From: Oopsacas minuta
Lineage: Eukaryota > Animalia > Porifera
Direction of reading: 5' to 3'
Length of the DNA: 64,000 bases
Assembly: GCA_024704765.1 (NCBI GenBank)
Contig: JAKMXF010000350.1
Location: 38,913-102,912, forward strand
Positions 19,111-59,721 of this stretch are shown here, piece by piece. How positions within the stretch are numbered: position 1 is the first letter of the stretch; the number at the start of each line of letters is the position of its first letter. A model generated the notes under the pieces. It was not told the DNA's origin and did not search any database. It saw nothing but the letters and a program-made list of their open reading frames with translations. Both the position numbers and the translations under genes were made by a program.

Positions 19111-19299
19111 GTTTTTTACGAGCCTGCGATGAACTCGGCGCATTGCGCCTCGAAGTATCCATTATTCTCCAAATTGATGGCCCCTTTGAGTATTATAATA
19201 TAGATATATTTAGAACAATGTAATTCACAAATAAGATCAACCCCCTTTGTAGCCGTTTAGAGCAAGCCTGTACGTATATTTTGAGATTTTGCTAATTTG

Positions 19300-35442: not shown

Positions 35443-37953
35443 CTATAATACAAAGTAATAATTTGTTACTTTCATAAAACTAACAACACTGATTGCAATA
35501 ACTAAATTAACAGAGTGACATATCTCATACAAGAACTTAGGTGCAAATACGCTCCAAACGAATAGATGGTATCTGAATGTATGCATTACAAGAAGATATA
35601 TGAATAGTGTGTAGAGACGGAATGATAAGAATAGATGCAATTGAGACCAGAGGAGCTTAGGATTCAAATGTGCGAAATGAAAAGATAGAGTTATAAAGAA
35701 CATAGAGAATACAGACAGATATGTTTGAATTGTAGCTCTTGGCTCGTAATGTGAGCTCATTCCTTTAAACCCAGCCCCCAGATCTACACTAGCGAAGTGA
35801 TTAGAATTACCGCAGGCATAATGTGTAGCATAGCACACCCATAATATATATACAGTAATGGTGTATCCTCTGCTACTCCTCAGTAGTATGTATGGGTATA
35901 GTATAGCATGTGATATCAGTGTTATCAATAGGATAAGGCTATAATAAGGCTTTGTTAGCATCAGGAATACTACCTGTAATCCTGTGAACAAACCAAACAG
36001 TAGGTTGGATTCTCTTGTATAGGACATGACTAATAATAATGTTAATAAGAGGATAAACCAACTCTGCCACACACCATGAGAATACTTCACTAGTTGACCA
36101 GTCATCGTCACCTCTCCAATGACAAGTTTAAAGTATAGAATAGCAAGTAGAGATCCAATAAACAGCAGTTTATTGTGTGTACTAGCTCTTCTTATCAAGA
36201 AAGCATTATTCATAATACAAATAGTGAATAGTGTATAGGAATACCCTACTAGATAATAAAAGTCATTTCCTTCTCTCTCTAACCAAGTACTAATATCCTC
36301 AAGATGTATCCAGTTTATTCCAGTCTGTTTCAATGAGACCATAAGCTTAGAACATACCACCAGCATGATAAAGCATACAACACTTGTAACACCTGCAGTA
36401 TTAGCTGTAGAACTGATAAGCAGTATAAACTGGAAAGTAGTTAGCCAGTAATACCAGAGATTGTGTTCTTCTTCCACACAACTACTGGAGAATAGCAGAA
36501 TAGGATATAGCAAGCTACCACACACTAATACCTGTGTACAACCAGATGACACAAACATACAAATCACAGCTCTCTTATAATAATATACTTCATGTCTGAG
36601 TATGTATATCCAAACAAAGAATACGATCACTAGGAGGTAAGCACACAGGAAGAATAGAAATATAGAAATAACTATAATACAGTATCTGTGAGGTAGTCTA
36701 TGGGTTATGAAGCGTGGATACTCTAATACTAATCTCAACAGAATACTTACACTCAACTCTAGTGTAACAGCTAGTATGAATAATCCAGAATAGAGATATA
36801 CGTGATCATACTCACTAGTCGTAGATAGCAATGCATTTTGTACTAATCTAGCTTGTTCTACTAATAATTCCAAACTAGTTTCTAGTGACTTATCCAAACA
36901 CTTATACTCATCTCTCTGAGATGGTTTCAACAGTCTACACAGATGTAATATGTTATTTCTAACTACTATCAGCTGATCCTGTTCACTAAGCTCACTCAAC
37001 AACTCTGGTATAACCACACCCACACTCTCTAGAGGAATACTCAATCCCATCAGTACAGCTAAGGTAGAAGTAATGTCTATCTGCATTATGACGTCATCTA
37101 TATTAGATGTAATATTATCATTATTGAATAGAGAACTTATAAACAGGAGAGGGACTAATGTCTCGTCTCTTGTCGCCCCACCGTGACTCCCTGTAACACT
37201 CATCCCATGATCTCCTAGAGCTACTAACAAACTCCTATCCTCACTTACCGCTGCGAACACTCTACTGATTATATCATCCATCTCTCTCAATTTAATATCA
37301 ATCAACTGGCTTCTGCTACCAAAAGTGTGTCCTATATGATCTAGTCCTAGATAGTGTAGAATCATAACGTCCCAGTCCTTATTAGCTAGTTCTCTGGGGA
37401 GATGACGTGTCACGTTGTTATCTACCTCTGTAAAGTCATTAACAAAGAAGGATACAGTACCATCTTGTCGCATGAAGCTATCTGGAAATAGTTTTATCCA
37501 AGTATCATCTCCATAGAATACAATTCTCTTATTCGTAGCTACTAGTTGTGTGATGATATTATCTTGCTTGAGAGCTGGAGATGAGATCTGAGTTATCATA
37601 TCGAAGAATCCGGGAACTGTTCCGGTTGTGAGAGCCTTGATACGAGGGAGTGTTACTGTAGGTGCGTGAGCATGTCCTGTGAAACATCTCGCAGAATTAT
37701 TCGATAGCATACCACTAACAAAACTCATCGGAGAGTTTGGTGATAGCACAAAATCATATCTAAGAGCATCGATAACAATGATTACCAGTTTGTCATAAAG
37801 AGGAGGGATATGAGGCTGGTGGTGTGTAGGGGGGACAGATTCTATTGAATGAGAGAGATTGAGTGGGAAATATCCTAGGAAGAATGTAGATAATCCAATA
37901 CAACTAAATATTAATAGAGATAGTGTGTGTGGGTATAGTCTGTGTTCTCTCAT
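35443..37953 (-). CDS. GPI ethanolamine-phosphate transferase (PIGO/PIGG/GPI7-GPI13 family)
   Basis: 836 aa. The N-terminal alkaline-phosphatase/sulfatase-like domain carries IDALRYDF and LGDHGM...HGG motifs. About 12 hydrophobic transmembrane segments follow. Confidence 0.7.
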   Translation of the reverse strand: MREHRLYPHTLSLLIFSCIGLSTFFLGYFPLNLSHSIESVPPTHHQPHIPPLYDKLVIIVIDALRYDFVLSPNSPMSFVSGMLSNNSARCFTGHAHAPTVTLPRIKALTTGTVPGFFDMITQISSPALKQDNIITQLVATNKRIVFYGDDTWIKLFPDSFMRQDGTVSFFVNDFTEVDNNVTRHLPRELANKDWDVMILHYLGLDHIGHTFGSRSQLIDIKLREMDDIISRVFAAVSEDRSLLVALGDHGMSVTGSHGGATRDETLVPLLFISSLFNNDNITSNIDDVIMQIDITSTLAVLMGLSIPLESVGVVIPELLSELSEQDQLIVVRNNILHLCRLLKPSQRDEYKCLDKSLETSLELLVEQARLVQNALLSTTSEYDHVYLYSGLFILAVTLELSVSILLRLVLEYPRFITHRLPHRYCIIVISIFLFFLCAYLLVIVFFVWIYILRHEVYYYKRAVICMFVSSGCTQVLVCGSLLYPILLFSSSCVEEEHNLWYYWLTTFQFILLISSTANTAGVTSVVCFIMLVVCSKLMVSLKQTGINWIHLEDISTWLEREGNDFYYLVGYSYTLFTICIMNNAFLIRRASTHNKLLFIGSLLAILYFKLVIGEVTMTGQLVKYSHGVWQSWFILLLTLLLVMSYTRESNLLFGLFTGLQVVFLMLTKPYYSLILLITLISHAILYPYILLRSSRGYTITVYILWVCYATHYACGNSNHFASVDLGAGFKGMSSHYEPRATIQTYLSVFSMFFITLSFHFAHLNPKLLWSQLHLFLSFRLYTLFIYLLVMHTFRYHLFVWSVFAPKFLYEICHSVNLVIAISVVSFMKVTNYYFVL

Positions 37954-38417: not shown

Positions 38418-38422
38418 TGGTC
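38418..38422. repeat. Target-site duplication TGGTC (left copy) of the Transib insertion; right copy at 41716-41720
   Basis: Direct read of the 5 bp immediately outside each terminal repeat. Confidence 0.8.
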
Positions 38423-38824
38423 CACAGTGGTTTAATAGGGCAGTTAGTAAAGAATAGCTATTTTGGTGTGAGATAGCCATATGAAATGTATTATTTACAT
38501 ATAGATTATTATATATAAGGAACCAGTACAGCTTGTCATAACAAGTATATGGCCTAAAATTTCCAAGTTATGACGTCATTGATATATGTGAAATTTTAAA
38601 TTTTCTTCAATAAATACATTTTACTCGACTTTATCGCCATGAAATCTATTGATTACATATGGGTTATCCGTATTTGGCAATCACCTTGAACTTAAAATTT
38701 TGTTGTAGGGCTTGTATTTATAGAGTTATGACGTCACACTTATGATGGAATTTATCTTATTGATTTACAAAATATACATTATATTCATACTTAAGTTCAT
38801 GATAGGCAATCTGTATTGGAGGTT

Positions 38825-39548
38825 TCAAGTCGTGAATAAAGTCTGTATACTAGTTTTCTGATTGTTCATAGCACTGCAGCGTTTAGATCTCGTTGTGTGT
38901 ACAGATTGACCACATCGTTCACAAGTCAAAATTCTTCGATAGTTTACTAAGGTTGGATCACTTTGAGAAGTTAATCTGACGAAGATATCCATATTATTGG
39001 TCTCAAAACTAACTTTACGAGCTAAATTCTCCCCATATTTTCTAACTAATTTGTTGCATGATTCTGTGCCTTCTTCTGAAAATGCCTTTAAGCCATAGCT
39101 AGAATTCGACTCACGTATTAACTCCTCGGAATGGGCCAAGAGCTTGTGCAGGGTTGGAGTCAAGCTAGCCCAGGGGAAAGAATCTAAGATGACAAGGTAG
39201 GTATCCTTGCACCACTTCCCCAATTCCAAAGTGTTAACCTTGTGACTTGAATTGAAAACCCGAAGAATGGCTGAAAGCTGAGTATGTATATTTGATAAGA
39301 TTGGGCGATATTGTATTGCTACAGTTGATAGAATGCATTCAAGGTATTCAGTTTCATCAGAAAAGGCTCTTCTAGCAACATTCCCTGTTGAGGTGGTTCC
39401 ACCGCTAGAATTAGGCTGGTCAACCTTTAATCCTGTCTTCTCCTGAATAAATGTTTGAAGGAATTTCATTGACTCCTTGATAACTGGTGAAGTTGGGGAC
39501 CAGGTAAACTTTTCGATGCGAAGATGATAAACCAGCAAATTGAACCAC
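38825..39548 (-). CDS. RAG1-like/Transib transposase, exon 2
   Basis: A 64-bp GT-AG intron (39549-39612) joins ...TGVFR|WFNLLVYHL in frame. HKLLAHSEELIRESNSSYGLKAFSEEGTESCNKLVRKYGENLARKVS aligns to RAG1 [43 protein letters not shown], which contains the third catalytic residue E962. There is a C-terminal CxxC...H...C cluster. Confidence 0.8.
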
Positions 39549-39612
39549 CTAAAATTGGTTTAATTATGTGAAGACAAATTCTGAATGATTAATGGAGTAC
39601 TAGATTACTTAC

Positions 39613-41042
39613 CTAAATACGCCTGTGTATGAATGAAGTGGAGATGCTGGATGTATGTTAATCTCTGAAATTGGTTGATGAGTTGAATTGAAGCGTTCAT
39701 TAGTCGAAAGAGCAAAGAACGACTCAATGTCATCAATGTGCGAAAATAACTCGATTGCATCTGTGATATTTCTGTTGATGGGGAACCCTTCAAGAACTAA
39801 ATTCCGGTCCTTCAAATCTTTATGTGTGGCAGTGCACATCTGACAACTGGCTCCTCCAGCTCCAGAGAGAATGGCTGCCATCTTCTTATCAAACATTGAG
39901 CGGATAATATCGACATTGACAACACCATTTTCTAAAGGAATCCCATTTTGCAACATCGCTATATCGGGATTAATCATAGTCTCCATGAAGGAACGAATAT
40001 TTTCTTCGCATTCTGTCGCAGCGCAGAGAAAAATAGGTCTTTGAGCGAAGGGTGAATTAGGGGATTTATTCTGCCAAACAATCCTGTTTGTTACAGTGTG
40101 GATGGAGATGGGCTTGAAACAAAACAGAATGAAGTTTTTGGTGAAAGTATTAGTTGTCTGCTGGTTGTAGATAGTGTGACAACCAGAACCATCTAAGCCA
40201 TCTGCGATTTTAAATGTGAGTGGGAATTCTTCACTTGTGGGGCGATCTACCATTGATAATATTCTTTCCAGGGTTTTCTGAACTTGAAGACAATATGGTG
40301 CGTGTATACCTATTAGTTTAGCTGGATTAGGATATAAAGTTATACTGGATCGCGAAATCATGACATCTCTCAGATTAGCTAGCTTGCTGTAAGATGGGAA
40401 ATGTATATTGTCTGGTAGAAGTGTTTGACGTAATTGAGTGTATTTTCGTCTGCCCACTTCAAGTAAATCTAGCAGGAATAAGGCTTTATCAACTGGAACA
40501 TGCTTGTTACTGAGGTTACAGAATCCTCCACTGACAATAATCTCTTTGGCCACCGTAGCAACCTGACGATTATTCTCCTCATTTGCCAATAGTTGTAATG
40601 AGAGTGCTGCAATGCTTATTTCTGTAGTATTCTCAATAACTGAGAGTGACTTAATGCATTCTAGCGGACTTGACAATCGAGTACGCTGTTGTTGCAGAGA
40701 GAGATCATCAAGATGCTTTCTATGACTCACTGAATGAATGGGAACTTCACCATCATCAGAAGACGACTCTAGTAAATCAGAAACACGATTTTTCTTTAAC
40801 TCAGGTTTCATGGAAATGTTAGAATGCCACCATTCTCCTTCTAAACAATCTAAAGATCTCTTCGCCTTCTTGAATCTGTCCCGAATTCTTAACAGCAACG
40901 TTTCCAAGAGTTTCGTATTATCAGAGTCTATTTCAAAGTGTTCTTTGAAATATTTTGTCGTTTTCAAGATACAATTATTATTGTCTTTCAGGATTCTTGC
41001 CAATTCGAGGCGGGACTTTGGGAAAGTTAACTCTTCTGTCAT
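39613..41042 (-). CDS. RAG1-like/Transib transposase, exon 1
   Basis: ADGLDGSGCH matches the RAG1 ESCDGMGD first catalytic Asp region. GGASCQMCTATHKDLKDRNLV matches RAG1 [22 protein letters not shown] (zinc C-x2-C). The first ATG is MTEELTF. The exon ends at donor AG|GTAAGT. Confidence 0.8.
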
Positions 41043-42402
41043 TGTTTTCAAGAAATTACGAAAAATATGTTGTATTATTCAGTAGATTATATATATAAGT
41101 CACTATAATAAATTTCAAGAACGAAATTCAATACTATTTCATTCCATTGTTGCAGTATGCTACAATGGGAATTTCCTAGCAACGAAAAGTTGTAATGGAA
41201 TGTCATTGAAAATTATAGGTTGCGCACTGTTTCGGGTTTTGTGGTTTTAGATTACGTTTTTAGGAATCGTAATGCGTGTATCCGATTCATTTTGCGCTGT
41301 TGTTTTGTGTTGTTTATTTTTCCTGACACTTTAAGTATTCCTCTTTGTAAAAATTCTGTATGGATTTTACTAGATTTTAGAAATCTTATGTTCACGAAAT
41401 GTATACAAGATACGGTCATGGAAACAAGATATTTAGAATTAGCATAGTCGAAATATATAAAGTATACCAGATTAGTAACATTCGATTATGTAATTGCTCT
41501 TACAGGTTCATTTGAAATTGTGGCTAAATTTGGAAATCATGAAGCCGCAATTTTCCTATAAATATTTTGCATCTTTGATGAAGAAATTTTACAGCTTCTA
41601 GGGTCTCAATCGCTTAGATATTTTAAATGAGAATCATTTAAACAATATAAAATGAAAAGAAACCATCAAATACGGAATCAATTTTTTGTCTATTCTTTGC
41701 TTCTAAACCACTGTGTGGTCATATGTGAGGAATGCACCACCAAAATCAATGTACCTCTCCGCACCAATATTAGTTGCTCCTGACGTCTCTGTATCATAAT
41801 ACAAACAGAATGTCAGTAATGTAGTATTGCTTTTAGCAGATGAACCTCCAATATCAAAAAATGAAAAATGAATATCATAGACATAAGTCATATAATAAAC
41901 GTAACGGTTCCGAATATTTAGTACCTAAGTCAGGGAGTTATACAGGTTATTAGGAATACACTGCTCCCAAATTTTCATACTCTTAAATCAGTAAATTAGT
42001 GTTATTGTACAGTGGATGCCGGTTATAAGGACACTTCATATAATGTTTTAAACACATGTGGACATTATTATAGAAAACTGTTCTCATATATATTGTATAA
42101 TTTATTCCGATTTTACAAACATACCGGTAATAAGGACCAATTTTATTACTATTCTAAGAGCTGACTCTTTGAATTAAGAAGTGAAGAGACCGAGGTTCCC
42201 CCGTGACTTGTTTTATTCTGTTACCTAAATCTTTACAATTTACAAGTCCACTGAAACTAAACATATCTCAGCAATTTGGCGAGAAATCCATAAAATGGGA
42301 CACAAACGATAATGGAAAAGACCCAGCTGAACTAAGGAAGACAAGTAGAATTTGAAACATTCGATTGATAAACAAAACCAATAAACAATGAAAATGATTA
42401 AA

Positions 42403-44127
42403 TTATGTTTTTCTCTTGGTTTTCTGAAACCTTTGAATATGCTTCCTCCTAGTTTTATAAGATAATTTAGTAACAACTCTAATGGGTTTCCTCTTCCTAG
42501 CCTTTCTAGCTCTCTTCTCTCTTTTCCCAGGTTTCTTTAACTCTAACATCCATGGTTCAACAGAGTGTCCTGATTGATGAATAGCAGTAGCAATACTCCT
42601 CAGATTATTGATGTCTCCCTCAGTGAATAAGGTAATAGCTCTCCCAGGTCTACCAGCTCTTCCTGTACGTCCCACACGATGTATGTATGATATCAGAGAG
42701 CATGGCATATCGAAGTTAATAACCATATTAACACCTTTGAAGTCCATTCCTCTAGCTACCAGCTCTGTAGCTATTAAGACCCATAGCTTACCAGCACGGA
42801 ACGCCTTCACTACATTGTCTCTCTGTGCCTGTGTACGCTCCGAGTGTATGACGTCAGCATTAATCCCATCGTATATCAGCTCACGCATGAGGTCTTTAGC
42901 TCTCTCTACTGTCTCTAGGAATATCAGTACAGGAGGGTGTAGATCTCCTTCTTGCACCATTTGACGGATAGCAAGTAGCTTACCGTCCTCACTGCCTACA
43001 AACTTAAGCTCTTGTTCAACCAGACTACACGCGGAATTTCTCACCCCCACAGTGACTCTAACGTAGTTAGGCAGGTGAGCTCTACACCACTCGTCCACCT
43101 TATCTGGTAGTGTAGCTGAGAATAGACCTAGTCTAATATCTGGATGAGAGCAAGCAGTGAGAATAGCAGATATCTGTTCTACGAAGGGCTGCTTGCTTTG
43201 AGCCTCAAATAACTTATCAGCTTCATCCAGTACTAGCCAGCGGACTGATTTGAGTGACACCCCAGGGGGGTCGGTAGACAGGAGGGACAGTAACCTCTTT
43301 GGAGTAGCTACAAGGATATCAAGCCTTAGAGCACCAGCTGGCGAGTATATCTGAGCAGCTGATGAGGACTTGGTTAGAAGATGGATTTGGAACTTAACGC
43401 CTATAGACAGACGTATGAACTCTCTGTATATCTGAGCGGCTAACTCACGGGTAGGGGTAAGCACGAGTGCACGGAATCCAACTCTCTGAGGCTGGTGGAG
43501 GCTAGATAAGATAGGTAGTACGAATGCTGCGGTCTTACCAGATCCTGTAGGAGCACAACAGAGCACATCTCTGTTATGCATCATTAGAGGAATAGCCTGC
43601 ATCTGTATAGGGGTAGGAGACATAAACCCTGATTGAATGAGGTTATCCAGGAGACAGCACGGCATTTGAGAAGTGTAGTTGTCATGGAGAGATTGGAATG
43701 TATCATGTGGGGCTGGTATATCACTGCCTTTAACATGTATTTTATATTGCTTACGTAACAGAGCAGATTGATCAGGGAGAGGGTCAGATTTCTGAGTTAG
43801 CTTTATCTTCTTAGATCTAGATAGTGTGTTATCTGATAGCAGTTGTATGGTATCCTCTGTTTCTGCGGAATCTAACACATTCCCAATAGATTCACTAATC
43901 TCTACAGACTCACTCAGTTTATGCTTCTTTCGTTTTCTTTTAGAGGAATCAGACTGTTTTTCAGTTTGAGACATATCTTCAAAGAAATCCAGAGCTCTCT
44001 TTGGATCAATATCTGATGTCTGGACATGTGTATTAGCAATAAACTGATTGAGAACATCTTTGTTTGATTTACTATTGAAACTGGTTCCTACCCTCAGTCT
44101 CTTGAATAGATTGTTTGTGTCTACCAT
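42403..44127 (-). CDS. DDX52: DEAD-box RNA helicase DDX52/ROK1-like
   Basis: 574 aa carrying the Q-motif, GSGKTAAF, PTRELA, LVLDEADKLFE, SAT and HRVGRTGRAGR motifs, with a basic KR-rich C-terminal tail. The overall layout is like DDX52/Rok1. Confidence 0.8.
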   Translation of the reverse strand: MVDTNNLFKRLRVGTSFNSKSNKDVLNQFIANTHVQTSDIDPKRALDFFEDMSQTEKQSDSSKRKRKKHKLSESVEISESIGNVLDSAETEDTIQLLSDNTLSRSKKIKLTQKSDPLPDQSALLRKQYKIHVKGSDIPAPHDTFQSLHDNYTSQMPCCLLDNLIQSGFMSPTPIQMQAIPLMMHNRDVLCCAPTGSGKTAAFVLPILSSLHQPQRVGFRALVLTPTRELAAQIYREFIRLSIGVKFQIHLLTKSSSAAQIYSPAGALRLDILVATPKRLLSLLSTDPPGVSLKSVRWLVLDEADKLFEAQSKQPFVEQISAILTACSHPDIRLGLFSATLPDKVDEWCRAHLPNYVRVTVGVRNSACSLVEQELKFVGSEDGKLLAIRQMVQEGDLHPPVLIFLETVERAKDLMRELIYDGINADVIHSERTQAQRDNVVKAFRAGKLWVLIATELVARGMDFKGVNMVINFDMPCSLISYIHRVGRTGRAGRPGRAITLFTEGDINNLRSIATAIHQSGHSVEPWMLELKKPGKREKRARKARKRKPIRVVTKLSYKTRRKHIQRFQKTKRKT

Positions 44128-44555: not shown

Positions 44556-45065
44556 TAAATCTATATTATTAAATCTCAATTGTTGTCTGTTTGTTTGTCC
44601 GTTGTCAAGGAAAGGATTTACGGTATGCGATTATGAAATTGTCTCATAGCTATGTATTAATCGTGTTTATCAAGGGAGTAAATAGAATTCAAAAAACTTC
44701 ACTAAATATATCGAACAAGCTGAATCTGATTTTCACACTTTTGGATTAATCACATGTAAATTTATTGTTGTTTTATGAAAGTAAAGTAAACAAATTATCC
44801 AAATCTCAAAATATATGTAGAGACTTGCTATTAACACAGCAACAATGGGGTAATCAAGATCAAGTAGACTTAACCCGAATTTCACATATATTCAAGTTTC
44901 TCATATGCGAATTTATTGTTGTTTATATGAATATAAAGTAAACAAATCATTGAAATCTTAAAATACAGGTAGGCTGAATCCGAATTTTGTATATTAAAGT
45001 TTCTTATTAAATTTAATATATGTAATTTTATTGTTGTATTTATGAATATACAGTAGACTCCGCTT
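44556..45065. repeat. Family A element copy plus ~120-150-bp tandem subrepeats (units ending tttattgttgttt(t)atgaatataaagtaaacaaat)
   Basis: It shares the 5' terminus with the other A copies. Three tandem units begin near 44761, 44912 and 45028. Confidence 0.7.
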
Positions 45066-47036: not shown

Positions 47037-47366
47037 TACCTATTATTAAATATCAAATGTTATTCGTCTGAGTGTTTGTCCGTTGTCAAGGAAAGGATTT
47101 ATGGTATGCTATTTGAATTCGTATTTTGCAAAACCCAGATGTAGTAAAACTATGACTTTATCGTGTTCACCAAATGATTCAACACACTTTACCCCAGTGT
47201 AGCTTTTTGAGAGCATGTACGTCTCTCATGTATTCTGAGATGGATCGAATTTGTTTACTTAATAATCATAAACGAAACAATAAAAATAGTATGCCATAAA
47301 TCCTTTCCTTGATAACGGACAAACAAGCAGAAAGACAGACAACAATTGAGAATTAATAATATAGAT
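47037..47366. mobile_element. MITE family A, complete copy with ~70-bp terminal inverted repeats
   Basis: The 5' end tattattaaat...gtttgtccgttgtcaaggaaaggatttatggtatgc and the 3' end gcataccataaatcctttccttgataacggacaaac...aattaataatatagat are reverse complements of each other. Confidence 0.75.
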
Positions 47367-47386
47367 AATGAACGTGTAAATATGTA

Positions 47387-50300
47387 TTAACCAACTGTGG
47401 CCCCAAAGGAGCCGATTTTATCGCGAAGCGACTGGCCCAAGCCCCATAGTTTAATAATAAACAATAAATGTTCCTTACAATTCTCTATCTGTGTCATCAT
47501 GAGAGATTGAGCTGTAGGCTGTATCCATATCTTATCGTCTTCGCTGAACATTAATTCTTTGAAAGTAGGAAATTCAGATTTCACAATTCCTAATATGTCA
47601 GACGTATTCTTAATAGCTTCTCTCGCAGTGGTAACTGAAATATGCTCCATTGGTATACAACAACCAATCCCTGGTGTCATTAACGGATTTTTAGCATTTT
47701 CATCAAAGTTTATCAGAGACACACAGAGAGAACTGAAGTTGTTATAAGCTATCGTAGATTTGAAAAATATCTTGACAATATCCAATAAGATGTCTAGGTT
47801 CCTCTGACAAGATATATTAGCCTTGTTGTATTTGTTAATATAGAGAATAGCAATACAAGTCTTCATTGCACACTCAAAACAGTTGGCACAAGCGTGTGGT
47901 GGGAATATTGCACCATCAGCCTCCTCACAAACTAACTTCTTAGCTGCTCTCAAATCGCATTGAGCCGTGCGGATCCATAGTTTTGCAATGAATTTATCTT
48001 CATTTGAGATTACAGCAGAGATTGTATTAGAGATAAGTCTTATAGGAGGAGTGTGAATTATTTGTAATAATGTTGCTCTTGTTACACCAGCTGGACGAGT
48101 AGCTGTCGGGTAATGAGATGTAGAAGTACTGCTTGGAGTGAGTCGTGATGAGCTAATGGGTGTGGTACGCATTACCAAAGATGTGGAACTTTTCACCGAT
48201 GGTAGGTTAATATCATCGATAAATGGACAGGCTTGTATGTTAAAGGAGTCTAATTTCTTCATAATATCACAAGTATTATCACAAGATAAACATAGTTGAA
48301 GAGCAAATAACATATCACTGAATATATTCCCAAAATGTAGATTTAGTGCATAGGTCAGGTCATGGAAGAAATTCACGTTTTTAATATTTCCACCATTTGC
48401 ATATAAAACTGAGTTTTCAATAAAACAATCGTAAATTCCATCTTTGGTAATTACAGCACCACCTGCAACCTCAGTGATTTGCATTGAGAGCGTAGATACT
48501 ATTGTGATTGATAATTTTTGTAAAATTTGAAAACAAGTCAAATACAGAGGATCATTTGCAATCCCTGGTTCCTTAGAGATATCCTTTACATTACCATTCT
48601 TTATACGAATTAGACTTAGATCGCCTTTTCCATCAGCTATGTTGGAATGATAATAAATACGAATTAGTCCTTTAGCAAATTCTCTACACTTAAGCAAGTA
48701 TTCCATCTCAAGACACTCATTTCTATACCGTGATATCGTGCCAGCATTCTTTAAAGCAGGATCTAAAGTCGCACTGATAATCTCACTCAAGTGTTTAATT
48801 TTGAGAGAAACAGGTGGTTTACATGACCCCAGAGAGTTCGGAGGTAATTCAAGCAAAAACTGAAGGTTGGAAAGACTCGGGAAACTTTCTATATGTATCT
48901 TAAGTCTTGTATTATCAATATATACTACGTTAGGTATAGGGACAATTTCATAAATATCAGATAATACCATTGTGTTCAGAGGATCTATATTAATAGTACA
49001 GTTAGACTGTTCTGCTTTCCTTAGGGTACTGATAAACAGTTGAAATGTTGTTTTACTAATCTCCTTCCTCTGTTCATTTCTCAGAGGCCTATCATGGTAG
49101 ATATCATTCATAACAGCTGCGTAATGAAAATAATCAGCTGATTCACTCACTCCTACAAGTTTCAGAAATGCATGATAACTCTTGAGAGCATCTGGAACTT
49201 TGAATAAATACTCGAGTATTATCGTGTTTAATGAAAATACCATGTTCCTGGGATAGAACAGTTTGTTTTCATAATAAATGCATTTAATATTGGTAAACTT
49301 GTTTTTCAAATTTTGACTACAATTTTCTTGTAAGAATCCATAAGTTTCAATGAATAAATTGTCCATAATTGAGTGATGATGAACGTGAATTTCGTTAAAA
49401 TTATCACAAATCAACTCAAGATGGCTTATAACAGTTTGTATGTCAGGTTTGGAACGGATATTCAGATATAATTCTGTATTATATTTTTTAGTGTATGTGT
49501 AACAATCGGAAACTAATGGATTATGGATATGTGTAGCCATGCAGCAAGAGTATTTGAATTCACACAACTCAGCCTTACTAAAGCTCGATATTATTTGAGT
49601 ATTTGCACTAGAGTTTGGGATACATTTCCAAACAGGTAGGAATTCAATTTTAGATAATTGTTGTAGTAGAGATGTATTATGAATATTCAAATTAATACCC
49701 TTAGATATCAACTGAGCTAGTGCAGATAGAGGTACAAGATAATCACTTGATGTGTAGATAAATTTTCTACTTTCTATCTTCTGGGCAGCTGTGAGTATTG
49801 ATTCTAGATCTGCTTTATCATGCAAGCCAAGATTACATAAAATCTGAGAACAATTTCTATAACCATAAGTGTTAGACCATTCATTGGGTAAGAGGTCTTC
49901 TGAAAAGAATATTTTGAACAATCCTACTTCTGGTGAATAGCAGTCACTGACTAATCTATTTCTATGAATAAACCTTACAGATTTGAGTTTATGAATAAAA
50001 TCCATTTCATAAGATGTAGGAGTATTTTGAATAAATAGAAGTAATTCTCTTTGCCCATTAATGTCAAGTTGTGTAAAATATCGCAAGACATAGACTAGGA
50101 AGAAATCACTCTCAGTCACCATGTGTATTCTAAGAGTTTTTGCGATGTGTTTAATAAGTGCTTCTTGTTTTTTAGAAGCCTTAAATATTGTAACTCTTTC
50201 GTTAGTTAGTTTGTTGATCAGTAAGGCTCCAATGTTATATGTAGAATTGTGAATGTAAAAGTTATCAAATTGAGCTATACAACACAATACATCTTGGTGG

Positions 50301-53300
50301 GATAAAAATATCTTCAGTAGAGAGATTATCCTTATCTCCTCACTCGTTAACTCATTTAACTTAGTATTAGGCAATAGATTCCTCAGTGAAGTAGCCTCGC
50401 TCTTATCAAATCTCACACATTCTATATTAATGTCAGATAGTTTTACTGCTGATATGAATAGAGGGAAAGTTATAGTACTGGAGATGACTAGAGGCTGTAA
50501 ATACATTGCTAGCGTACTCACATCGAAATCATCTTTAGCTAGTTTGTCTAGACATAATACATAACAATTCAGTTTAATCAAGGAGCTGTATAGCTCTTTA
50601 TTGGAAGATGCGTTACTTGAGGTATTGAGTATAGCAGGTAGATTTGATATCAACGTATACTCTCCAGCAGGGTTATTCTTAATAGGAACTAAAGGAAATT
50701 TCCCAAATTTCTGTATTAAATCATAGGATTGGAGTCCTGATTGAAGTATGAATTTCCAAAACAAACAACATTCCTGTAGCTGGAATTCCTTAACTTCTAA
50801 ATTATTCGATAAATAATCAGGTGAAAGTTCTTGCATAAAACCATGCGCACATAGTATTTGTATGCTATTGATAGGAAATATAGATGAAACAAACATTCCA
50901 GCACGATGAGGAAGTAGACTCCCGTATGCAGGCGTGAATGTAGGTTTAGTTTTAGTAAAATGTCCCAATCCTCCATTAAAATCAATCTTTAATGGAATTT
51001 TCTGAAATAATAGAATACATTCAGGTTTGGCTGAGAACAGATATTCTAATAAAATATCTATTTCCTTCATACTTAATATGAGAGCATTAAAAGCAGTATA
51101 TTCAATTCGGTTGAGGAATGATAGTAAAATAGTTTGATCCAATCTAGTTAGGTAACATGAAAATTTCTTAAAACTGTGATAAATGTGATCTGGGGCACCA
51201 GTTAAAGGTAATCTCAATTTCTTGAGAGTTAAATATAGTGAGTCTTGCTCTAAAGAGTGTTTCCGACTCTTACTAGCAGACAAAAGATTATGTGATGATG
51301 AGATACCAGATAATCTTCTAGAGCTATCTGGGAATATTCCTCCATGCTCTCCATGTAGAGGATGCAAACGCTCATAGCATCCGCTGCTGATGAGTATTTT
51401 CTCATTACTACTATACATTAGAATGTATAACTCCTTACATAGTGCGTATAGGAAGTTGGTATACACTTGATTACCTTCAATAAGTTTACCCATGTCTGGG
51501 TATAGAGAGTAGTACCAGTCGTAGTAATCAGAATCTATAAAATTTGTTAACTCAGTATCCGCTCTACTCTTTAGATAGATAAGTAAAGAAGCAAATAGCG
51601 GTGCTATCACGTGCTGGATAATAGATGAATGCCAAACATCTTCCCACTCCAATTTTTCAGGAGAATCTCCACTCACATCTCTGAAGCGAATGTGCTGTCT
51701 CTCAGGCTCAAGGATAAAAGGAGCATTAATCAGAATTGGAAAGTTCACAGATCTATCATCCCCTATCGGGAGATAAGAATACAAACAGCTTCCTCCTGTT
51801 GGTGTCCTGCAGCTTGCATCAGTTGGAACATGTACCGCTATTCCACCATACACTTGATGAGTTAATTTTTCTCTCTCATAAATACTTTTGTATTTAGTAA
51901 TTTGAGGAGAACATTTTTCTAGATCCTTCATAGACCCTTCATGCGTGAATAGGATCCATGAAGATGTATGTGGATAGCTTCTATTTCTTTTTCCAAGAAT
52001 ACTAACATTTGGTTGATTTGGTGAGATTGTTGTAAATTTTTCATGTATTATTTCTCTTTTTGTAATCTGTATAGTATTCAAGAATTTACAATTGAGTGAA
52101 ATTGGAGGTGGATATGGATTCAGGGGGGTAACCAGTAATTTAAATGTACCCATCATAGTTGTGCTATCTTTATCACGTTTGTAGATTGATATTCTCTGAA
52201 TATTATTTAAAAAGAGATTGAAATTTGACGAGTTTTTAAGAAAATCAGATAATATTTTCTCGACTTCAGTTTCAATACTAGATTCCATAATAGGAATTCT
52301 AAAGATAGTATAATCTCCATTGGTTAAGGTAGGGAATGTATTAGCGGATGTAGTGTTGAGAGATTCTAGAGAGTATGGAATAAACTGGTCAGGGAATTGA
52401 TCTATGTTTTCTGACTTAAAAGTAAATTTCATTCCAGGTAAGTTCTGAGGAGGGAGTATTAGGAATTTACGAAAAGGATCAAAAATACAAAAATAAATTT
52501 CTCCACCGTTATTCCTTCGTGTTAGTAAACAAGGAGAATCAGTTAAATTATAAACAGCATTAAATCCTAGCCCAAATTTCCCAATCGTATGGCTGTCCTT
52601 TTTACCACCAAGACCAACTGACTGTATTCCTTGTAAATCTTTATCACTGAACGTACTATTGTTATACACAAGTAATGATGTATACTGCTGGTATTTGTGC
52701 CAGTTTGGCTGTTCATTCTCGCTCAAACATAGGGTGTTAGTCCTAGAAGAATATTCTGTAGTATCTAGTATAAAAGCTACTTCTGTTGCTCCAGCATCTT
52801 CTGCATTCTGTAACAGCTCTTTGAGTATTGTAGTACCACATGGAAATGCTCGCTTAAGGCCTCTAATTCTATCAGCGATATCTTCATACTGTCCAAACTC
52901 TTCAAACGCAGAACTTGTGTAATATTCACTTCGCTTACTCCTTGCACCGAGATTAAAGGCTGCTATCGGGTGAATGCGTTTATGAACTGTATTGGATCTG
53001 TTCAGAGAGGGAGGGTATCCTGTCTCCTCCCAAGGCATATCATTGATCACTAATTCACAGCCAGGGCACAGTTGTAATTCTGTTGAGAGGAGAACTTGTT
53101 TAGGATTGTTAGAAAATAGATATTTTTGAACATTATGGAAAAATAAATTGGTGAGTACAATAATAAGATCAATAAGGAGTTCGTCATGGATATTAGAATT
53201 CTCTCTAGCAATAAGATGTAATATCCTGTGAGCATCTGTTTGTGAAATATTTTCCTTTATTTCTAATCTTTGTAAGAATGATTCCCTTAATCCCTTATTC

Positions 53301-56300
53301 TCATAATTCAGTTTGTAAGGAAATGTTAAAAGGAATTTACAACTGTAATGAGAGAATTTCTCAGAACTGACTATATACGATGTATGACGAAATGATCCAG
53401 AAACTGGATGCCAAATGTAATTAAGAGTTTCTATAGAAACGGCAGGATCGTTTACCCAGTGTTTGAATATGGTAGTGTATATATTTTCTGCCCTTGCTGA
53501 TAATTCATTTTGAAGATTAAAGGAATGAATTTGGCCTTCTTTTTCTCTCAAGCTCTGTAATAATGAGGCGAGTGTGCGAATATTAATAGATTTCCATGCT
53601 TCGCGGATAGACAGGAATGTTTCAATACATTTAAGTTTGTCCACTTCTTTTGTAACAGCGTAACAATTTGTAGACATGAGGTACCGTAGGTCATAAGAGT
53701 AACATTGACTCGGACTAGCAAACTGAGTACATCTTTGTAATCCTAGTCGTATGAGAAATAAATCATTCCAAACAGGAATTAATTTAATGTTCACTAATTT
53801 GCTTTGTATCAATTTTAAATCCCTGTCTTCGTAGCCAGAAGGAGATGATGAAGACATATTGTTAAGATACTGAAGGATAGTCATACAATGTTCAAATCTT
53901 CTTGGATTTAAGAAACTTATCTGACATTCACAACGTTCAATGAGATCTGATACTGGTAATGTATTCTCAATTATTTTTAATATCTTCAAAGCTTTGTAAT
54001 GAATTGTTTTTGGTGCAAATAACTTGTCTAAATCTGGATGAATAGTTCTCTTATCACTAGGACAATATAGTCTAGCTACAGGTGAGCGGGGGCTAATTAC
54101 CTCTGAAGGTTCGAGAAGTGAGTAATCTTCTCCGGCACCACACGGAATACATGGTACATTAGAGAATAACTCTTTGACCCAGTTTTGAGATCCTTTGTGT
54201 ATAACTGGTAACAAGGATGTGAGTACTAGTTTAATATCTGGGAATGAAAATGTAGAAAAATTAGGGAAAATAACTTCACGACAAATTCTTTCCAAACTAA
54301 AAATCTTGTCTTTATTATTTTGCAAAATAATATGAAATAGATGAGTTGATTGTAAGCTAATACCTAAGTCTACTAAAGATATATTAAATTGTAAACATTT
54401 TCTTCTAGCAAAGTTATAAAACTCTTTCAAAGAATTGAAGTCGGAATAATCCTCATAAAATATAAAGTTAGCTTCATTATAACCAATCCACTCATTTCCC
54501 AAGCCGTAATAGAATAGAGGTGTATCAGTATTCATGACTCTAATAGCAAATGCTTTAGGAAATTCTCTCCAAATGATTAAATGAGGTTGAGCGTTGAGAG
54601 GCCACAAACGATAGAACTCATATATTTGTTCTTTTCCTTTAGAAAACTCCCCTCTTATTTGAACAAACAAATTGATAAATGTATTTACAAGGCTGTCATT
54701 GACAAGAGCTATATTCCATGTAGTCCTGTCACTACCATCCTCAGTACATGCTATTCCTCTTCTAGATTGATCTAATGCAAAACACCCGTTGATGTACATG
54801 GGATAAGGTGAAGTGACAGGTAGAGGTAGATAACAGTACATGTAGTAGTTATTTTTCTTTGGAGGAGATTTTCCTATTGAATTAAGGGGAAGTGCAACTG
54901 AAGTAACAGGCATGTAATTTGATATCTTTCTATGCGAATTTTCCTCCAGAAACTCTATACATTGCTGAATTCCAGTCGAATAGGAAATAATGAAACTTTT
55001 TGATTCCTTTCCTGAAAGTCTTTCACATGTGATAGTAACCTTTTGATGATGCACAACAGGTGTAACATTAGGGGTAGTCAATAACTCGTCAAAATGAGCC
55101 AAGTTTTTAGAAATAAAAGTTTCATGAAGTTCAAATGGCTGTGTAATTTCCTTTTTAGACACTTTCAGAAGCAGAACTGGTTTCGAAGTTAGTGGTTTTT
55201 CGTATATTTCAATACATTTAATATGCTGAAGGAAACGAATGCTTGATTCAGCTTCCAATAATATCCGTGATTTTAGTTCCCCTATCGCAGAGCTATTATA
55301 GACAGTACCGGATATATCAGATGACACAGTACGGAATGGTAATCGAAAGAGAGTTCCATTGAATGGTTCAGGATCAAAAACATCACAGCCAAATAATTTT
55401 AGGTTAAAAACACTGAATTGATCTCGAAACTCAAACGTTTCGGTATTGTTAAGTACAAAATCGACCTGAATACCTGGAGGGTTACTTCGATGAAGAAACT
55501 TCCTATTAGGATCCAACATGTGTATATACCTCCCACTCACAAAACTAGGTAAATCTGTCAAATGGTAAACTGTGTTGAAACCTAATCCGAATTTTCCGAT
55601 TTTCAATTTATCTTCAAGTTTCGTTTCACCAAAAATTTCCATTATGTTATCAAAGTCAGCATCTGTGAATTGTGCATCATCATAGAAATACAAAGCAGGA
55701 CCTTGCCATTGCTTCATTGTAGGCTCTATGAGTGAATCTGTAGGGAAACTATTATAATCAATGAGAATACGGGCTGTATTAGCTTTAGCGTCATCTGCGT
55801 TCTGTAATAATTCCTTGTAAACATCAATATTTGATTCATATTCCTTTAGAATACTACGTAACCGGGTGGTTAACTCTTCAAACTGACCTTTGAATTTAAA
55901 GAAACCCAACTGATCACCCAACATTGTTAGTTTAAATGATGTGGCTCCAAATTTTAAAGCAACAAGTCTAGATATATTGGAGTTTACGATAAAATACATC
56001 TTATCATTTTTATTAACTTGAGATTCCTTTGAGGATTGTAAAGGATTGTCATATACCACACACTCGGTGGCTAAATGAAGCAGATTATCAACTCCCAATA
56101 GGAAATGATCGCTAAATGATTGAGTCTGAGAATTATAGAGACTATGGATTATGTTAAGGATGAGTTTTACATTATGAGGTCTAGAATCCATAGATTGGGA
56201 TTGATATAAGGTATCCAAAATCTGGTATAATTGATTATCAGAGAGAGATTCATTTGCTCCACAGTTTTCGAATAATTTCCAAGCAGCTTCAGAGTAATTC

Positions 56301-59300
56301 AGCTTTTCAAAGGAATAATAAAATGGCTCTAGAGAATAATCTAAGTTTCTAGCAACTAGTTTCGCTTCAATAAAACTATTTGTATGTTTCACATACACAA
56401 AATGTGTTACTATCTCATCTATCACTGTTAGGATAGATGGTGAAGAATAAATTCTATTTAATAAAGAGTGAATCCTTTTTGGGTCGGATGAGTGGATTGA
56501 TGTGAGTGAAATTTTATTTAATTGTTCAGCCATCATTCCACCTGTTACTTCAGTATTACAATTGAGATGATTCAGTAGTTCATTAGATTGATTGTCTTGA
56601 TAAGATGGGAAGAATTGTACACATATCCTTACACTGGCAATAAGGGAAATATCTATATCGTTACAGAACACGACTGACTGTAGTTGAGTTAACTTACGTT
56701 CTCCTAAGAAGGGTATACATTTGGGGTAATCACCAGGACGAGTATATGATGGTAACACAATACTACTACTCAACAGGATTCTAGAAATTGGATCAGTGTT
56801 AAGGTTTGAACTTTTCCAGCAAGATGTAACAAATTGAAGAAGTGTAGAAAAACGTTTTCTCCATAATTCATTGCAATTAGGAACATTAATATCCAAATGG
56901 AAATAACATACAGCTGATTGTGTAACTGCTTCAAACATTTTCTGATTAGTTAGTTGTGTGGAAATGAAAAAAAGTTCCAACTTCTTTGCCATGTGAAAAT
57001 AATCTTTGTAGTCTTTATGAACGAAGAAATTAGATTTAGAAGGTAAGAGTATTTTTAACATATCATCATCAGGATAGAACAGCTGATTAGGCTGACGATA
57101 GTTACAAGGTTGTGATATGGAATTTGAATTGTCTACAATCCATTTAGTAGTTTTCAAAACCTGAATATTTTGATAACTTACTTTATCCAGATTGTTTAAC
57201 AGCCATATACTCAAATTAAAATGTTGAACAAACATATTAGTCTCAATCATAACTTGCATGAATGGTAATATATTATTTATAAGGAAATTGTTAAAATCTG
57301 GAGCAGTTATACCCAACTTTCCATATAACGTATTTACATTGTAGATATCTGGAGATAGAAAATTAGCTGGATACTGAAACTGTGAGGGAAGGTAAATATT
57401 ACCTGGTACTCTCACAAATGTAGATACAGCGATAGAAATATGATTCCCGTTAATAGTCGGGAATATTGGGAGCTTCTTAATTAATTGTATTTGATTATTA
57501 GTAAATCGGGAATCGTTGTTCAGAATATCGATAATGAGTTCGAAAAGTTGTTCATTCGTATCTTTTCTGAGTTTGTTAATAAACGTATTTAAGATGTTAT
57601 TGTTTGTCTGCAATAGAGTCAATAATCCATTTGGAATAGGACTAAGGACTAAACTATCTAAACATTCGACAAATTTATGTGAGTGTATAAATACACTCCC
57701 ACATTCTAGCAGTATATTCTCTAAGGGTTTGCACTTATCACCTGTAGAACATTGAATGTAATTGCTACTAGTATTAGATGAAACAATAGGCAAGAGTTGG
57801 TTATTGATTGAATACAAGTCATGCGTTGGGAGCAAGGGTAGATCACCTAGGGATCTAGCAAGGTTCTCATCAGATCCTATAAAAGACCATACGAGTTTTA
57901 TCCAGGATTTATTGAAGGGAAAAAAGTTAGGATTCCATTTTAATGGGGGGGTCGTAATCATAAAATGTGATTTTATTGATAATTCGAATAAACGTTTCAA
58001 TAAATCTAAATCTGTTTTGATGTTAGATATATCTTTGAGGTTAATCTTTCCTTTACATGTGTGAGATAACATTAAGATACGAGAATATATTTCAGTAGGT
58101 ATACCTCGATCTACAAATGAGCCTTCTGTTCCAGGGAAAAGGTTAACAAAATCAAAAGTATCATCATAAACATAATAATAAGTTTTTGGATTAATAGAAA
58201 ATTTGAAAATATGTGGAGTAGCTACTTTCAAAAGTGGGATACTATCAAGTTGATTCGAAAAATTACTATTATGAACTGTAAAGTCTGATAAAATGAAATT
58301 TAGAATAACAAATGTATGATCTTTAAGATTTGCAATAAAAAATACATTCAATGCAGGATTATTTGAGTGTTTCACCAACAGCTGACGAAGTAGAGCGGGT
58401 GTTACTCTACGTCTATCAATATCATTCTTAACAGAATCTATTCTGTTAAATAAAGTTAGGATAGTTTTAGGAAGAAGGACTAAGGGTTCTTTTAAAAGTT
58501 TCAAGAGCTTTTCTAACGGGCAATTAATATTAGTATTAACATCAGATAGGTATATTCCTTCTTCAATTTTAATCCATTCATTCGTAATGCAAGAATATAC
58601 AATTTTCTCATTCGCTAAAATCCTTAATCCCTGGTCAATTAATATAGAGGATTGCTTCTTCAACGTACTTGCTCCCAGCATTTGATAATGGTAGTTACCA
58701 GGGTTGCCATGATGAAAAGAGTTGAGGAGAATACTGTAGAAGATAGCGTAAGCACTCACACCAAGCTGTTCTATCAATAATTTATTCCAAGTAGAGTCTG
58801 TGTCTTGTGAGTCAACACTCGGCCATTTGATTTGACGTCTGTCATTTGACAAAGCAAAGTATCCATGTAAATTAAAAGGTAGATCTGTAGGTTCAGGAGT
58901 AGGAAGAAAACAGAATAATTTACCAGTATCAGCTGATAGTTTATGATTAAAACGAACTGTTAAGTGAAAATTAAAATTTTCAAGAATTCTATAAATAAAA
59001 TCCAGAAGGTTATTTCCGTCCCAATCATCTTGGAAGTTCATAGCTTTTGATGTACCAAGTTGATCACTTGTTATACCAGTTTCCATTGCTATTCCTATCC
59101 ATGGTAGATAATTAAGGTTACTCTTAGAATAAAATTCATAAAGTTCAGTTTGTGATTGAGGAAATCCGATCATATTTAAAACGAGCCATACTTTATCCTC
59201 TCTGCTATTCAATGAAGAAATAGGAAATAAATTTATCGTCACTTTGATAGATTTGTGAAAATTCTTTTGCTCAACATGATTTGATAGTAATCTATTAGAG

Positions 59301-59721
59301 TACACTACGTCATCAATATAATTATTTGGTATGTTAATAGAGAATATCTTCTTCGTCTCAATTCCAGATTTTGTGTAAAGAGTAATTGACTTAATATTTT
59401 TAAGAAATATTAGAATATTACTAGATTCCTCTTGCAAAGGTTTAAATAATTTAGCCATAACACTATCAGCTGTGTATAGCCCAGCTGGTTTGATTTTAGA
59501 TTTTGATTGTTTGTTTCGAAGTGGAAATCTGAATATTGTCCCGTCATACTTACTAAGGCCATTATAATCGAAATAAGAACGGAAACAATTCTGATGAGCA
59601 GAATATACTGGATCTTTAAAGAACTTTTTCAGTTTTATTCTCTTCCCCGGTTCATTAGGATATATCTGTTGCTGTGGATCCAATATTCCAATACTGTTAT
59701 TACTCAAAATCATAGGGACAT
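47387..59721 (-). CDS. SACS: Sacsin-like giant protein, terminal 12.3-kb exon (HSP90-like ATPase sacsin-repeat modules 2 and 3, HEPN-like C-terminus)
   Basis: 4108-aa uninterrupted ORF. It contains LLQNADDAKANTARILIDY and ILKELLQNAEDAGATEVAFILD with downstream GKFGLGFN motifs (sacsin SRR). Acceptor ttctattctgaatag|AT continues the frame as ...ITD-VPMILSNNSIGILDP, matching sacsin ITDVPCIFSGDQIGMLDP. Confidence 0.85.

Follow-up and report, generated by a model that had tools for sequence, protein, structure and literature searches.

In the 64-kb window of the Oopsacas minuta genome analyzed here (the whole stretch of 64,000 nucleotides), the spacer between a DDX52-like DEAD-box helicase gene and the PIGG gene contains a 3,293-bp element with the features of a Transib DNA transposon (Table 1). 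It is accepted that Transib elements are related to the transposon from which the V(D)J recombinase of vertebrates arose. The element carries one gene, a transposase gene read from the minus strand, and is bounded by terminal inverted repeats (TIRs) of the sequence CACAGTGGTTTA and its exact reverse complement. The original prediction had described perfect 12-bp inverted termini, each opening with CACAGTG, the consensus heptamer of the recombination signal sequence (RSS), a perfect 5-bp duplication of the target site (TSD), TGGTC, directly outside both ends, and a total length of 3,293 bp; all of these were reproduced, and the match between the flanks does not reach a sixth base. When the 12-bp TIR sequence was searched with up to one mismatch, these two sites were the only ones in the window. 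The heptamer by itself is not over-represented there (4 observed, 5.5 expected), and the evidence for the element therefore lies in the pairing of the TIRs, the duplications and the encoded protein rather than in the heptamer alone. The G+C content of the element (35.9%) matches that of the window (35.8%). No further copies and no miniature inverted-repeat transposable element (MITE) derivatives of the element were found in the window. The open reading frame (ORF) listing contains no RAG2-like gene inside the element and no other ORF there longer than 115 amino acids. Two copies of GTTATGACGTCA, a motif that includes the cyclic AMP response element (CRE)-type palindrome TGACGTCA, lie in the 3' untranslated part of the element, at 38569-38582 and 38727-38738. 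We interpret the feature as a single copy of a Transib-superfamily DNA transposon, cut-and-paste and autonomous in type, a reading to which we assign a probability of about 0.9.

The two exons of the transposase gene are joined across a 64-bp intron into an uninterrupted frame of 717 codons. Exon 1 carries the putative catalytic residues D284 (40193-40191) and D385 (39890-39888) and the cysteine pair C400/C403 (39845-39834); exon 2 carries H611/H616, the catalytic E639 (39064-39062) and a C-terminal CxxC...H...C knuckle. Splicing rebuilds a VFRWF motif (F476-R-W478) with no insertion or deletion, and the F and W of this motif are invariant in 17 sponge relatives of the protein. The position of the junction within this motif and the recovery of the invariant residues on splicing give good support, internal to the sequence, for a genuine intron. 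The 717-residue product is identical to GenBank entry KAI6646904.1 (LOD99_9096) of O. minuta, a 'hypothetical protein', so that the public annotation already holds the two-exon model. Its UniRef cluster mates are labelled 'V(D)J recombination-activating protein 1 RNase H domain-containing protein'. Thus the two-exon gene and the small intron proposed from the sequence were both recovered unchanged.

In alignments, D284 (within GLDGSG), D385 (within SMFDKKM) and E639 (within SEEGTES) occupy the positions of the RAG1 catalytic residues D600, D708 and E962; the numbering of the RAG1 triad follows the E962-S963 context given in PMC10629977 together with the alignments. C400/C403 and H611/H616 align to the RAG1 zinc site and to the corresponding residues of HzTransib and of the amphioxus protein BbRAG1L. 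The 17 sponge relatives show no variation at D284, D385, C400 or C403, whereas conservation of E639, H611 and H616 is at least 90%. The similarity to the RAG1 core that had been pointed out around the first aspartate, the CxxC motif and the E962-containing helix is therefore borne out by both alignment and conservation. Three accessory regions are also discernible. The first, which aligns to the segment of RAG1 containing the nonamer-binding domain (NBD), has the pattern RKxLSxLT...RxRL; its R120 and R122 are invariant or nearly so, and the GRP motif is absent. The second, between the CxxC and LH motifs, is predicted to form short helices in an AlphaFold model (predicted local distance difference test score, pLDDT, 81-87). 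The third is the knuckle at the C-terminus. Its motif, CxxCGExGH...C(C), recurs in the majority of the 17 relatives and can be aligned to the tail of MleTransib_3931 from the ctenophore Mnemiopsis leidyi.

Comparisons with solved structures place the protein beside Transib and RAG1. When the 717-residue sequence was compared with the PDB using phmmer, the matches were HzTransib of the moth Helicoverpa zea (8.7e-23), amphioxus RAG1L (6.9e-11) and RAG1 (about 5e-5 and weaker). A profile built from the 17 sponge relatives gave much stronger values for the same three (7e-43, 1e-17 and 1.5e-15, respectively) and could be aligned over RAG1 residues 362-980, that is, from before the nonamer-binding domain. 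An AlphaFold2 model computed on the alignment of the 17 relatives had a mean pLDDT of 80.2 and a predicted template-modelling score (pTM) of 0.71. When this model was compared with the PDB using Foldseek, the top 49 matches were all HzTransib (template-modelling score, TM, 0.82 normalized to the target), RAG1 or BbRAG1L, with about 640 columns aligned to the RAG1 core that includes the NBD; the next match was the P-element transposase, at an E-value of 3e-4. Relatives of the protein carry a precomputed match to PF26100 (RAG1_RNase_H). No Pfam match to a RING, a zinc finger or another N-terminal non-core domain of RAG1 was found in the transposase. Sequence comparison and the predicted fold thus agree with the Transib/RAG1-like assignment first proposed, and support the view that the protein is a DDE transposase of the Transib type with a RAG1 fold.

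Independent evidence for the boundaries comes from related elements on contigs of sponge-associated assemblies in the ENA, which were reached by exact look-ups (L001, L002, L005 and L006 in Table 1). The termini CACAGTGG(T/C)TT(A/G/T) are shared by the diverged elements L001, L002 and L006. Of the five complete elements, four (that of the window, L001, L002 and L006) are flanked by perfect 5-bp duplications of unrelated sequence. With their termini in common and a separate perfect duplication around each, L001, L002 and L006 fix the element boundaries independently of the window copy. Kapitonov and Jurka (2005; PMC1131882) characterize Transib elements by a transposase homologous to the RAG1 core with a DDE triad and a CxxC/HxxxxH zinc site, by TIRs led by a heptamer beginning CAC, by a length of 3-4 kb, and by a single transposase gene of about 700 codons unaccompanied by a RAG2-like gene. 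The 5-bp duplication is described there as the hallmark that sets Transib apart from other eukaryotic DNA transposon superfamilies. The window element has a homologous transposase with the DDE triad and zinc site, a 5-bp TSD, CAC-led heptamer TIRs and a single gene within its 3,293 bp. The linked RAG2-like gene (kelch, with or without PHD) that defines RAG-like (RAGL) transposons of the ProtoRAG type is not present within its TIRs.

The element is not alone in the O. minuta genome. A cluster of sequences more than 90% identical to the window protein includes at least 11 O. minuta models from NCBI, spread over no fewer than 8 contigs; the majority are truncated, and only one has 717 residues. 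A dozen more O. minuta proteins lie at 36-61% identity, which indicates that older Transib lineages coexist in this genome. The family of the window copy is multi-copy in O. minuta and decaying. In the paper describing the O. minuta genome, RepeatMasker results include the line 'Other (Mirage, P-element, Transib)', which accounts for 1,552 elements and 1.22% of the genome and is not discussed there. A profile search of 1.84 billion proteins yielded 4,705 related representatives. The 64-bp intron is retained in L003, the element whose coding sequence is 94% identical to that of the window copy, and is absent from the 57-60% identical proteins P0001, P0003 and P0004, which are encoded by single ORFs of 723-725 codons (elements L001, L005 and L006). 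Since these relatives are intronless, the intron was probably gained within the sublineage of the window copy and L003, in what would be a case of intron acquisition by a transposase gene.

Table 1. Features of the Transib element of O. minuta, its flanking genes and related elements. Positions of related elements refer to their own contigs.
Feature	Position	Strand	Remarks
Transib element (whole)	38423..41715		3,293 bp; transposase on minus strand; perfect 12-bp TIR and 5-bp TSD
Left TSD, TGGTC	38418..38422	.	Same as 41716-41720; no match at sixth base
Right TSD, TGGTC	41716..41720	.	Same as 38418-38422
TIR CACAGTGGTTTA, 3' end of element in transposase orientation	38423..38434	+	Heptamer CACAGTG at 38423-38429
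TIR, 5' end of element in transposase orientation	41704..41715	-	Exact reverse complement of CACAGTGGTTTA; heptamer CACAGTG at 41709-41715
Second end motif AAAGAATAG, long-spacer end	38449..38457	+	19 bp inward of heptamer; position kept in L001, L003, L005 and L006
Second end motif AAAGAATAG, short-spacer end	41690..41698	-	10 bp inward of heptamer
Transposase exon 1	41042..39613	-	ATG at 41042; 1,430 nt; residues 1-476 and 2 nt of codon 477
Intron	39612..39549	-	64 bp; GTAAGT...TTTTAG; phase 2
Transposase exon 2	39548..38825	-	Residues 477-717 and stop codon (38825-38827)
RAG1 nonamer-binding-like region	40527..40721	-	Residues about 108-172; RKxLSxLT...RxRL; aligns to RAG1 NBD segment
CxxC-to-LH segment	39642..39833	-	Residues 404-467; present in RAG1/RAG1L and Subgroup I Transib, mostly missing in HzTransib
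C-terminal zinc-knuckle-like tail (CTT1-like)	38876..38923	-	C686-x2-C689-GQSV-H694-x6-C701
DDX52-like DEAD-box helicase gene	42403-44127	-	Intronless; adjoins the spacer with the element
PIGG gene	35443-37953	-	Intronless; 836 aa; 100% identity with the O. minuta protein GPI ethanolamine phosphate transferase 2, encoded on the same 172,971-bp contig as KAI6646904.1
Helicase-PIGG spacer			Window 4,449 bp (1,151 bp without the element); L007 639 bp; L004 6,866 bp
Related element L001	5276-8693		Protein 60% identical to window; terminus CACAGTGGTTTA; TSD TAAAG
Related element L002	1899-7899		Nested insertions; 71% identical over retained part; terminus CACAGTGGTTT(G/T); TSD ATGTG
Related element L006	4304-7529		57% identical; terminus CACAGTGGCTTA; TSD AACTA
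Related element L005	4288-7549		57% identical; 3' heptamer mutated to CATAGTG; no TSD
Related element L003 (ENA ERZ25069837, ctg27922)	5388-9065		Coding sequence 94% identical; degraded copy

Past the perfect 12-bp repeat the two ends of the element diverge, and they do so non-randomly. Read inward, the end upstream of the ATG (right in the window) has the order CACAGTG, 10 nt, AAAGAATAG, and the end downstream of the stop codon (left in the window) has the order CACAGTG, 19 nt, AAAGAATAG. The second motif occurs three times in the 64-kb window on both strands, and two of the three occurrences face inward within the terminal 35 bp of the element. The layout with 10- and 19-bp spacers is common to the window element, L001, L005 and L006; L003 shows the arrangement of the 3' end. 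In addition, the second motif co-varies between the ends, being AAAGAATAG in the window element and L001 and GGAAATAG/GGGAATAG in L005 and L006. When one end was shifted against the other, a unique best offset of 9 bp was obtained in four of the five complete elements (11/14, 11/14, 7/14 and 10/14 matches). By analogy, these bipartite and asymmetric ends have the heptamer-spacer-second-element logic of the 12/23 signal sequences. The original prediction was thus right about the termini and overlooked the asymmetric, bipartite structure that lies behind them.

The age and activity of the window copy were considered separately from its identity. The copy had been called young and possibly still mobile. 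Its perfect ends, its intact frame and its intact catalytic core agree with this description; the state of its C-terminus does not. The protein has 6 private amino-acid differences in 717 residues, of which G693V, C700R and N702S fall within the last 25 codons, and a 1-nt indel creates a TGA stop codon that removes nine C-terminal residues (LTSNTDCLS). The alternative state at these C-terminal differences is backed by the paralogues P0002 and P0010 and by the nucleotide copy L003. Thus the putative DNA-binding tail at the C-terminus is the most mutated part of the window copy. L003 is itself 5'-truncated, with two insertions and one stop codon; between it and the window coding sequence, synonymous divergence (dS) is 0.087 and nonsynonymous divergence (dN) 0.042, a ratio of 0.48. 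Judged from these sequences, the window copy can fairly be called young. Because of the knuckle changes and the premature stop, it is uncertain whether its own enzyme could now mobilize it, although its ends should be mobilizable in trans.

The most serious competing explanation, with a chance that we would place somewhat short of even, is that the window copy was recently immobilized or has become dependent on transposase supplied in trans, its ends being intact and its own enzyme impaired by the changes in the tail. The clustering of the substitutions speaks for this: G693V alters the 'GH' of the knuckle, C700R, N702S and the stop-making indel lie with it in the last 25 codons, and the other roughly 690 codons have about three private changes only. 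Most O. minuta paralogues are truncated, and the dN/dS ratio against L003 fits a mixture of selection and neutral decay. On the other hand, the catalytic and zinc-domain residues of the window copy are all intact. C701, a possible fourth ligand, is kept, and the H-to-C spacing varies among the relatives; P0033, P0038 and P0041 do without the knuckle altogether.

The assignment to Transib stood, and the affinity within the superfamily, which had been overlooked, could be added to it. In the division of Tao et al. (2022; PMC9435367), Subgroup I Transibs have asymmetric TIRs, retain the alpha11-alpha12 part of the zinc-binding region, have a CTT1-type tail and are closer to RAG1L; the classical Transibs, including HzTransib, belong mostly to Subgroup II. 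Asymmetric TIRs are universal in the Subgroup I set of that study, which includes elements from ctenophores and Hydra, and 'hundreds' of Transib-like proteins are reported there from 'other metazoans'. Using phmmer, the window protein scored 152.7 bits against MleTransib_3931 (Subgroup I), 82.5 against HzTransib and 65.2 against the fungal EpuTransib (both Subgroup II); the sponge family profile gave 268, 149 and 114 bits, respectively. The CxxC-to-LH segment is 65 residues long in the window protein, 68 in MleTransib_3931, 29 in HzTransib and 27 in EpuTransib, and it aligns to BbRAG1L and RAG1 with no major gap. The sponge element thus shows asymmetric TIRs with a 9-bp offset, a CTT1-type tail and, with segment length as the proxy, retention of alpha11-alpha12. 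Since architecture and scores agree, the sponge family may be placed, on these two grounds rather than on a tree, with the Subgroup I elements proximal to RAG1L; it resembles the ctenophore Transibs more than the insect Transib.

MleTransib_3931 (PMC9435367) is likewise a single-gene element encoding a transposase of approximately 700 residues, and BLASTP aligns it to the sponge protein at 27% identity over 607 residues (E-value 1e-49), an alignment that begins in the NBD-like region and runs as far as the CxxC..H knuckle of the C-terminus. Subgroup I Transibs likewise have asymmetric and bipartite ends, and an end of the ctenophore element PbaTransib_0868 also starts with CACAGTGG. The sponge element differs from them in its host, a hexactinellid of the phylum Porifera, and in the sequence of its second motif and the 10/19-bp spacing, which are specific to this sponge lineage. 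HzTransib (PDB 6PQN, 6PQX and related entries) is the best match of solved structure in both sequence and fold, and it has in common with the sponge element a DDE triad, a zinc site of the form CxxC/HxxxxH, a TSD of 5 bp and a heptamer that begins with CAC. However, about 35 residues that follow the CxxC motif are missing from HzTransib, and the sponge protein is about 220 residues longer. HzTransib also lacks most of the region equivalent to the NBD (Carmona et al. 2016), and its tail is of the CTT2 type (Tao et al., PMC9435367) whereas that of the sponge protein is CTT1-like.

In the supplement of PMC9435367, CthTransib_0091 and CthTransib_0066, which serve there as the root of the RAG/Transib tree, come from the SUP05 metagenome bins SPONL and CRYPa. 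One of the two contigs has a coverage of 0.19x; both are rich in AT, with gene models that include introns from AUGUSTUS. The bacterial origin of these contigs may be worth re-examination. We considered whether these 'bacterial Transib' contigs of Tao et al. could be sponge contamination related to the present family and rejected the link, CthTransib_0091 scoring -1.5 bits against the sponge profile.

The element has features in common with RAGL transposons as well. ProtoRAG of amphioxus (BbRAG1L-RAG2L; PDB 6B40) shares the fold and the catalytic core (6.9e-11 by phmmer; TM 0.73), and ProtoRAG/RAGL transposons have a 5-bp TSD, heptamer-led asymmetric ends and a CCHC-type C-terminal tail, as here. 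The protist RAGL transposon AanRAGL has 4- and 13-bp spacers, which again differ by 9 bp (Tao et al., PMC9435367). ProtoRAG differs in possessing a RAG2-like gene, and its sequence similarity to the sponge protein is far below that of Transib. It is highly improbable that the sponge element is not a primary Transib but the remnant of a RAG1L+RAG2L transposon whose RAG2-like gene has disappeared. The protein does keep the zinc-domain segment by which RAG1 contacts RAG2, together with an NBD-like region and a CCHC tail reminiscent of RAG1L, and Martin et al. (2020; PMC7204232) raise the possibility that Transib arose through loss of RAG2L. Against this, the window element contains no RAG2-like ORF and the compact L001 and L006 (3.2-3.4 kb) have no room for one, the sequence is matched far better by HzTransib than by RAG1L, and the N-terminal non-core domains of RAG1 gave no Pfam match.

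The likeness to vertebrate RAG1 and its signal sequences consists of the exact CACAGTG heptamer, the order heptamer-spacer-second motif with two spacer lengths, the ligands of ZnC2/ZnH2 and the catalytic triad, with sponge D284/D385/E639 standing for D600/D708/E962. The differences are equally clear. Identity to RAG1 is about 16% in the structure-based alignment; the spacers are 10 and 19 bp rather than 12 and 23 bp; and AAAGAATAG differs from the nonamer ACAAAAACC. The NBD-like region lacks the GRPR motif of RAG1, and RAG2 and the RING/N-terminal non-core region are absent. Finally, the sponge element belongs to the multi-copy mobile elements, whereas RAG1 is a domesticated recombinase.

The genes around the element allowed its position to be compared with orthologous loci. 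The order helicase-PIGG-MVP-bystin is kept in two related sponges (L007 and L004), in which PIGG is 80% and 72% identical and no Transib is present. The spacer lengths listed in Table 1 fit an insertion into a short ancestral spacer. That the gene is a domesticated RAG1-like host gene and its inverted repeat and pentamer coincidental has scarcely any probability. In its favor, LOD99_9096 is annotated like any gene of two exons, with an intron and an open frame, and its base composition equals that of the host. Against it, the gene is one of a multi-copy family whose many decayed members are scattered over different contigs, the orthologous spacer of the two related sponges lacks it, and three further diverged elements have the same terminal architecture and 5-bp duplications. 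The source of the 94% identical copy, L003, was also considered. No ENA protein in the collection was more than 80% identical to O. minuta PIGG, though the L003 coding sequence is 94% identical to that of the window, and a search with the host gene flanking L003 gave no O. minuta orthologue. Either L003 stems from an assembly of O. minuta, or of a very close relative, in which PIGG is unindexed, or the family moved horizontally between glass sponges.

Several other features of the window were recorded. Its genes are mostly long intronless ORFs, encoding a formin, a nucleoside transporter, bystin, MVP, PIGG and the helicase; a sacsin-domain protein is encoded by an uninterrupted ORF of 4,108 codons (47387-59713, minus strand), and a tRNA-Ile (GAT) gene is located at 4943-5014 (plus strand). 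A segment of about 3 kb is present in duplicate, at 12243-15000 and 17155-20354, with 91-99% identity; each segment has one intronless ORF (548 and 588 codons) that has no Pfam match, and the second contains a 21-bp tandem array at 17722-17868. Short interspersed repeats with arms of about 50 nt that include TGTTTGTCCGTTGTCAAGGAAAGGATTTATGGTATG occur in both orientations at 11758-12163, 13984-14337, 18962-19582, 44560-45062 and 47041-47386. One inverted pair of arms (47067-47119 and 47279-47331), 159 nt apart, looks MITE-like.

A mechanism for the sponge Transib can be proposed from what is known of HzTransib, ProtoRAG and RAG. The nick-hairpin, cut-and-paste mechanism of HzTransib and RAG is summarized in PMC10629977 (see also PMC9435367). 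By extension from the biochemistry of these systems, a transposase dimer would synapse one short-spacer and one long-spacer end. The DNA would be nicked at the heptamer border and the flanking DNA hairpinned, releasing the element, and insertion with a 5-bp stagger would generate the TGGTC duplication. The second motif would be read by the NBD-like region, the C-terminal knuckle or both, and its reading could impose an asymmetry of end pairing like the 12/23 rule without a RAG2 partner. A wider scenario, which we put forward tentatively and regard as rather doubtful, is that glass sponges harbor a live, RAG2-independent Subgroup I lineage whose exact heptamer and second motif at 10/19 bp are read by the NBD-like domain, the knuckle or both, that a 12/23-like rule would accordingly predate the capture of RAG2 in the earliest-branching animals, and that the family may have moved recently between hexactinellid species.

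A number of observations weigh against the interpretation of the element and its ends developed here. A profile-HMM search had been proposed as a check on the original prediction; the PDB comparisons, the family profile and the fold bore it out, but the Pfam RAG1 model (PF12940, built for RAG1 and not for Transib) reached 20.6 bits, below its gathering threshold of 25 bits, with an E-value of 1.3e-4 and over residues 606-660 only, and 14 of the 17 relatives matched it, all weakly. The expected empty site (GAATGGTCATATG, with flanks ATGAATGGTC and ATATGTGAGG) was not recovered at the base level, the orthologous spacers of the two related sponges being too diverged to align. Exact look-ups with P0008, P0002, P0068, the exon-1 ORF and the neighboring helicase, in a collection in which the O. 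minuta assembly appears not to be indexed, gave no record of another O. minuta copy or of an allelic empty site. Transib is reported to prefer GC-rich targets (Kapitonov and Jurka 2005; PMC1131882); this was not seen in the small sample of four TSDs (TGGTC, TAAAG, ATGTG and AACTA), whose G+C of 7/20 (35%; n=4) compares with 35.8% in the window. L002 is an exception among the elements, its 5' end lacking the 9-bp offset. The Subgroup I placement, made from scores and architecture and not from a tree, used one Subgroup I sequence, and the Transib sequences for comparison were typed from a supplement processed by optical character recognition. The C-terminal substitutions and the truncating indel bear on the activity of the window copy, as described above. 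Lastly, recognition of the second motif by the NBD-like domain or the knuckle is purely inferred.

It should be noted that part of this finding was already known, as the gene is in GenBank as a hypothetical protein and the repeat table of the genome paper has a line that includes Transib. Sponges are not mentioned in four papers on Transib/RAG evolution (PMC10629977, PMC9435367 with its supplements, PMC7204232 and PMC4411706), and a full-text literature search combining Transib with 'sponge' or 'Porifera' found no paper with both in its title or abstract. The element extends a known transposon family into sponges, as a Subgroup-I-like Transib in Hexactinellida, and is no new kind of system. 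Because Subgroup I already spans ctenophores and Hydra and 4,705 representatives are public, its presence in a sponge is an extension rather than a surprise. Its value lies in the combination, in an early-branching animal, of an exact heptamer and 10/19 bipartite ends with accessory regions like those of RAG1L. A compact 3.3-kb element with a single gene unites the RSS heptamer, ends with two spacers, an NBD-like region, a zinc segment of the type that contacts RAG2 and a CCHC-type tail. These features bear on two open questions, the form of the ancestor that preceded RAG2 and the time at which the asymmetric bipartite signal architecture arose. An enzyme restored to the family consensus, together with the 10/19 ends, would offer a tractable test of end-pair asymmetry without RAG2.

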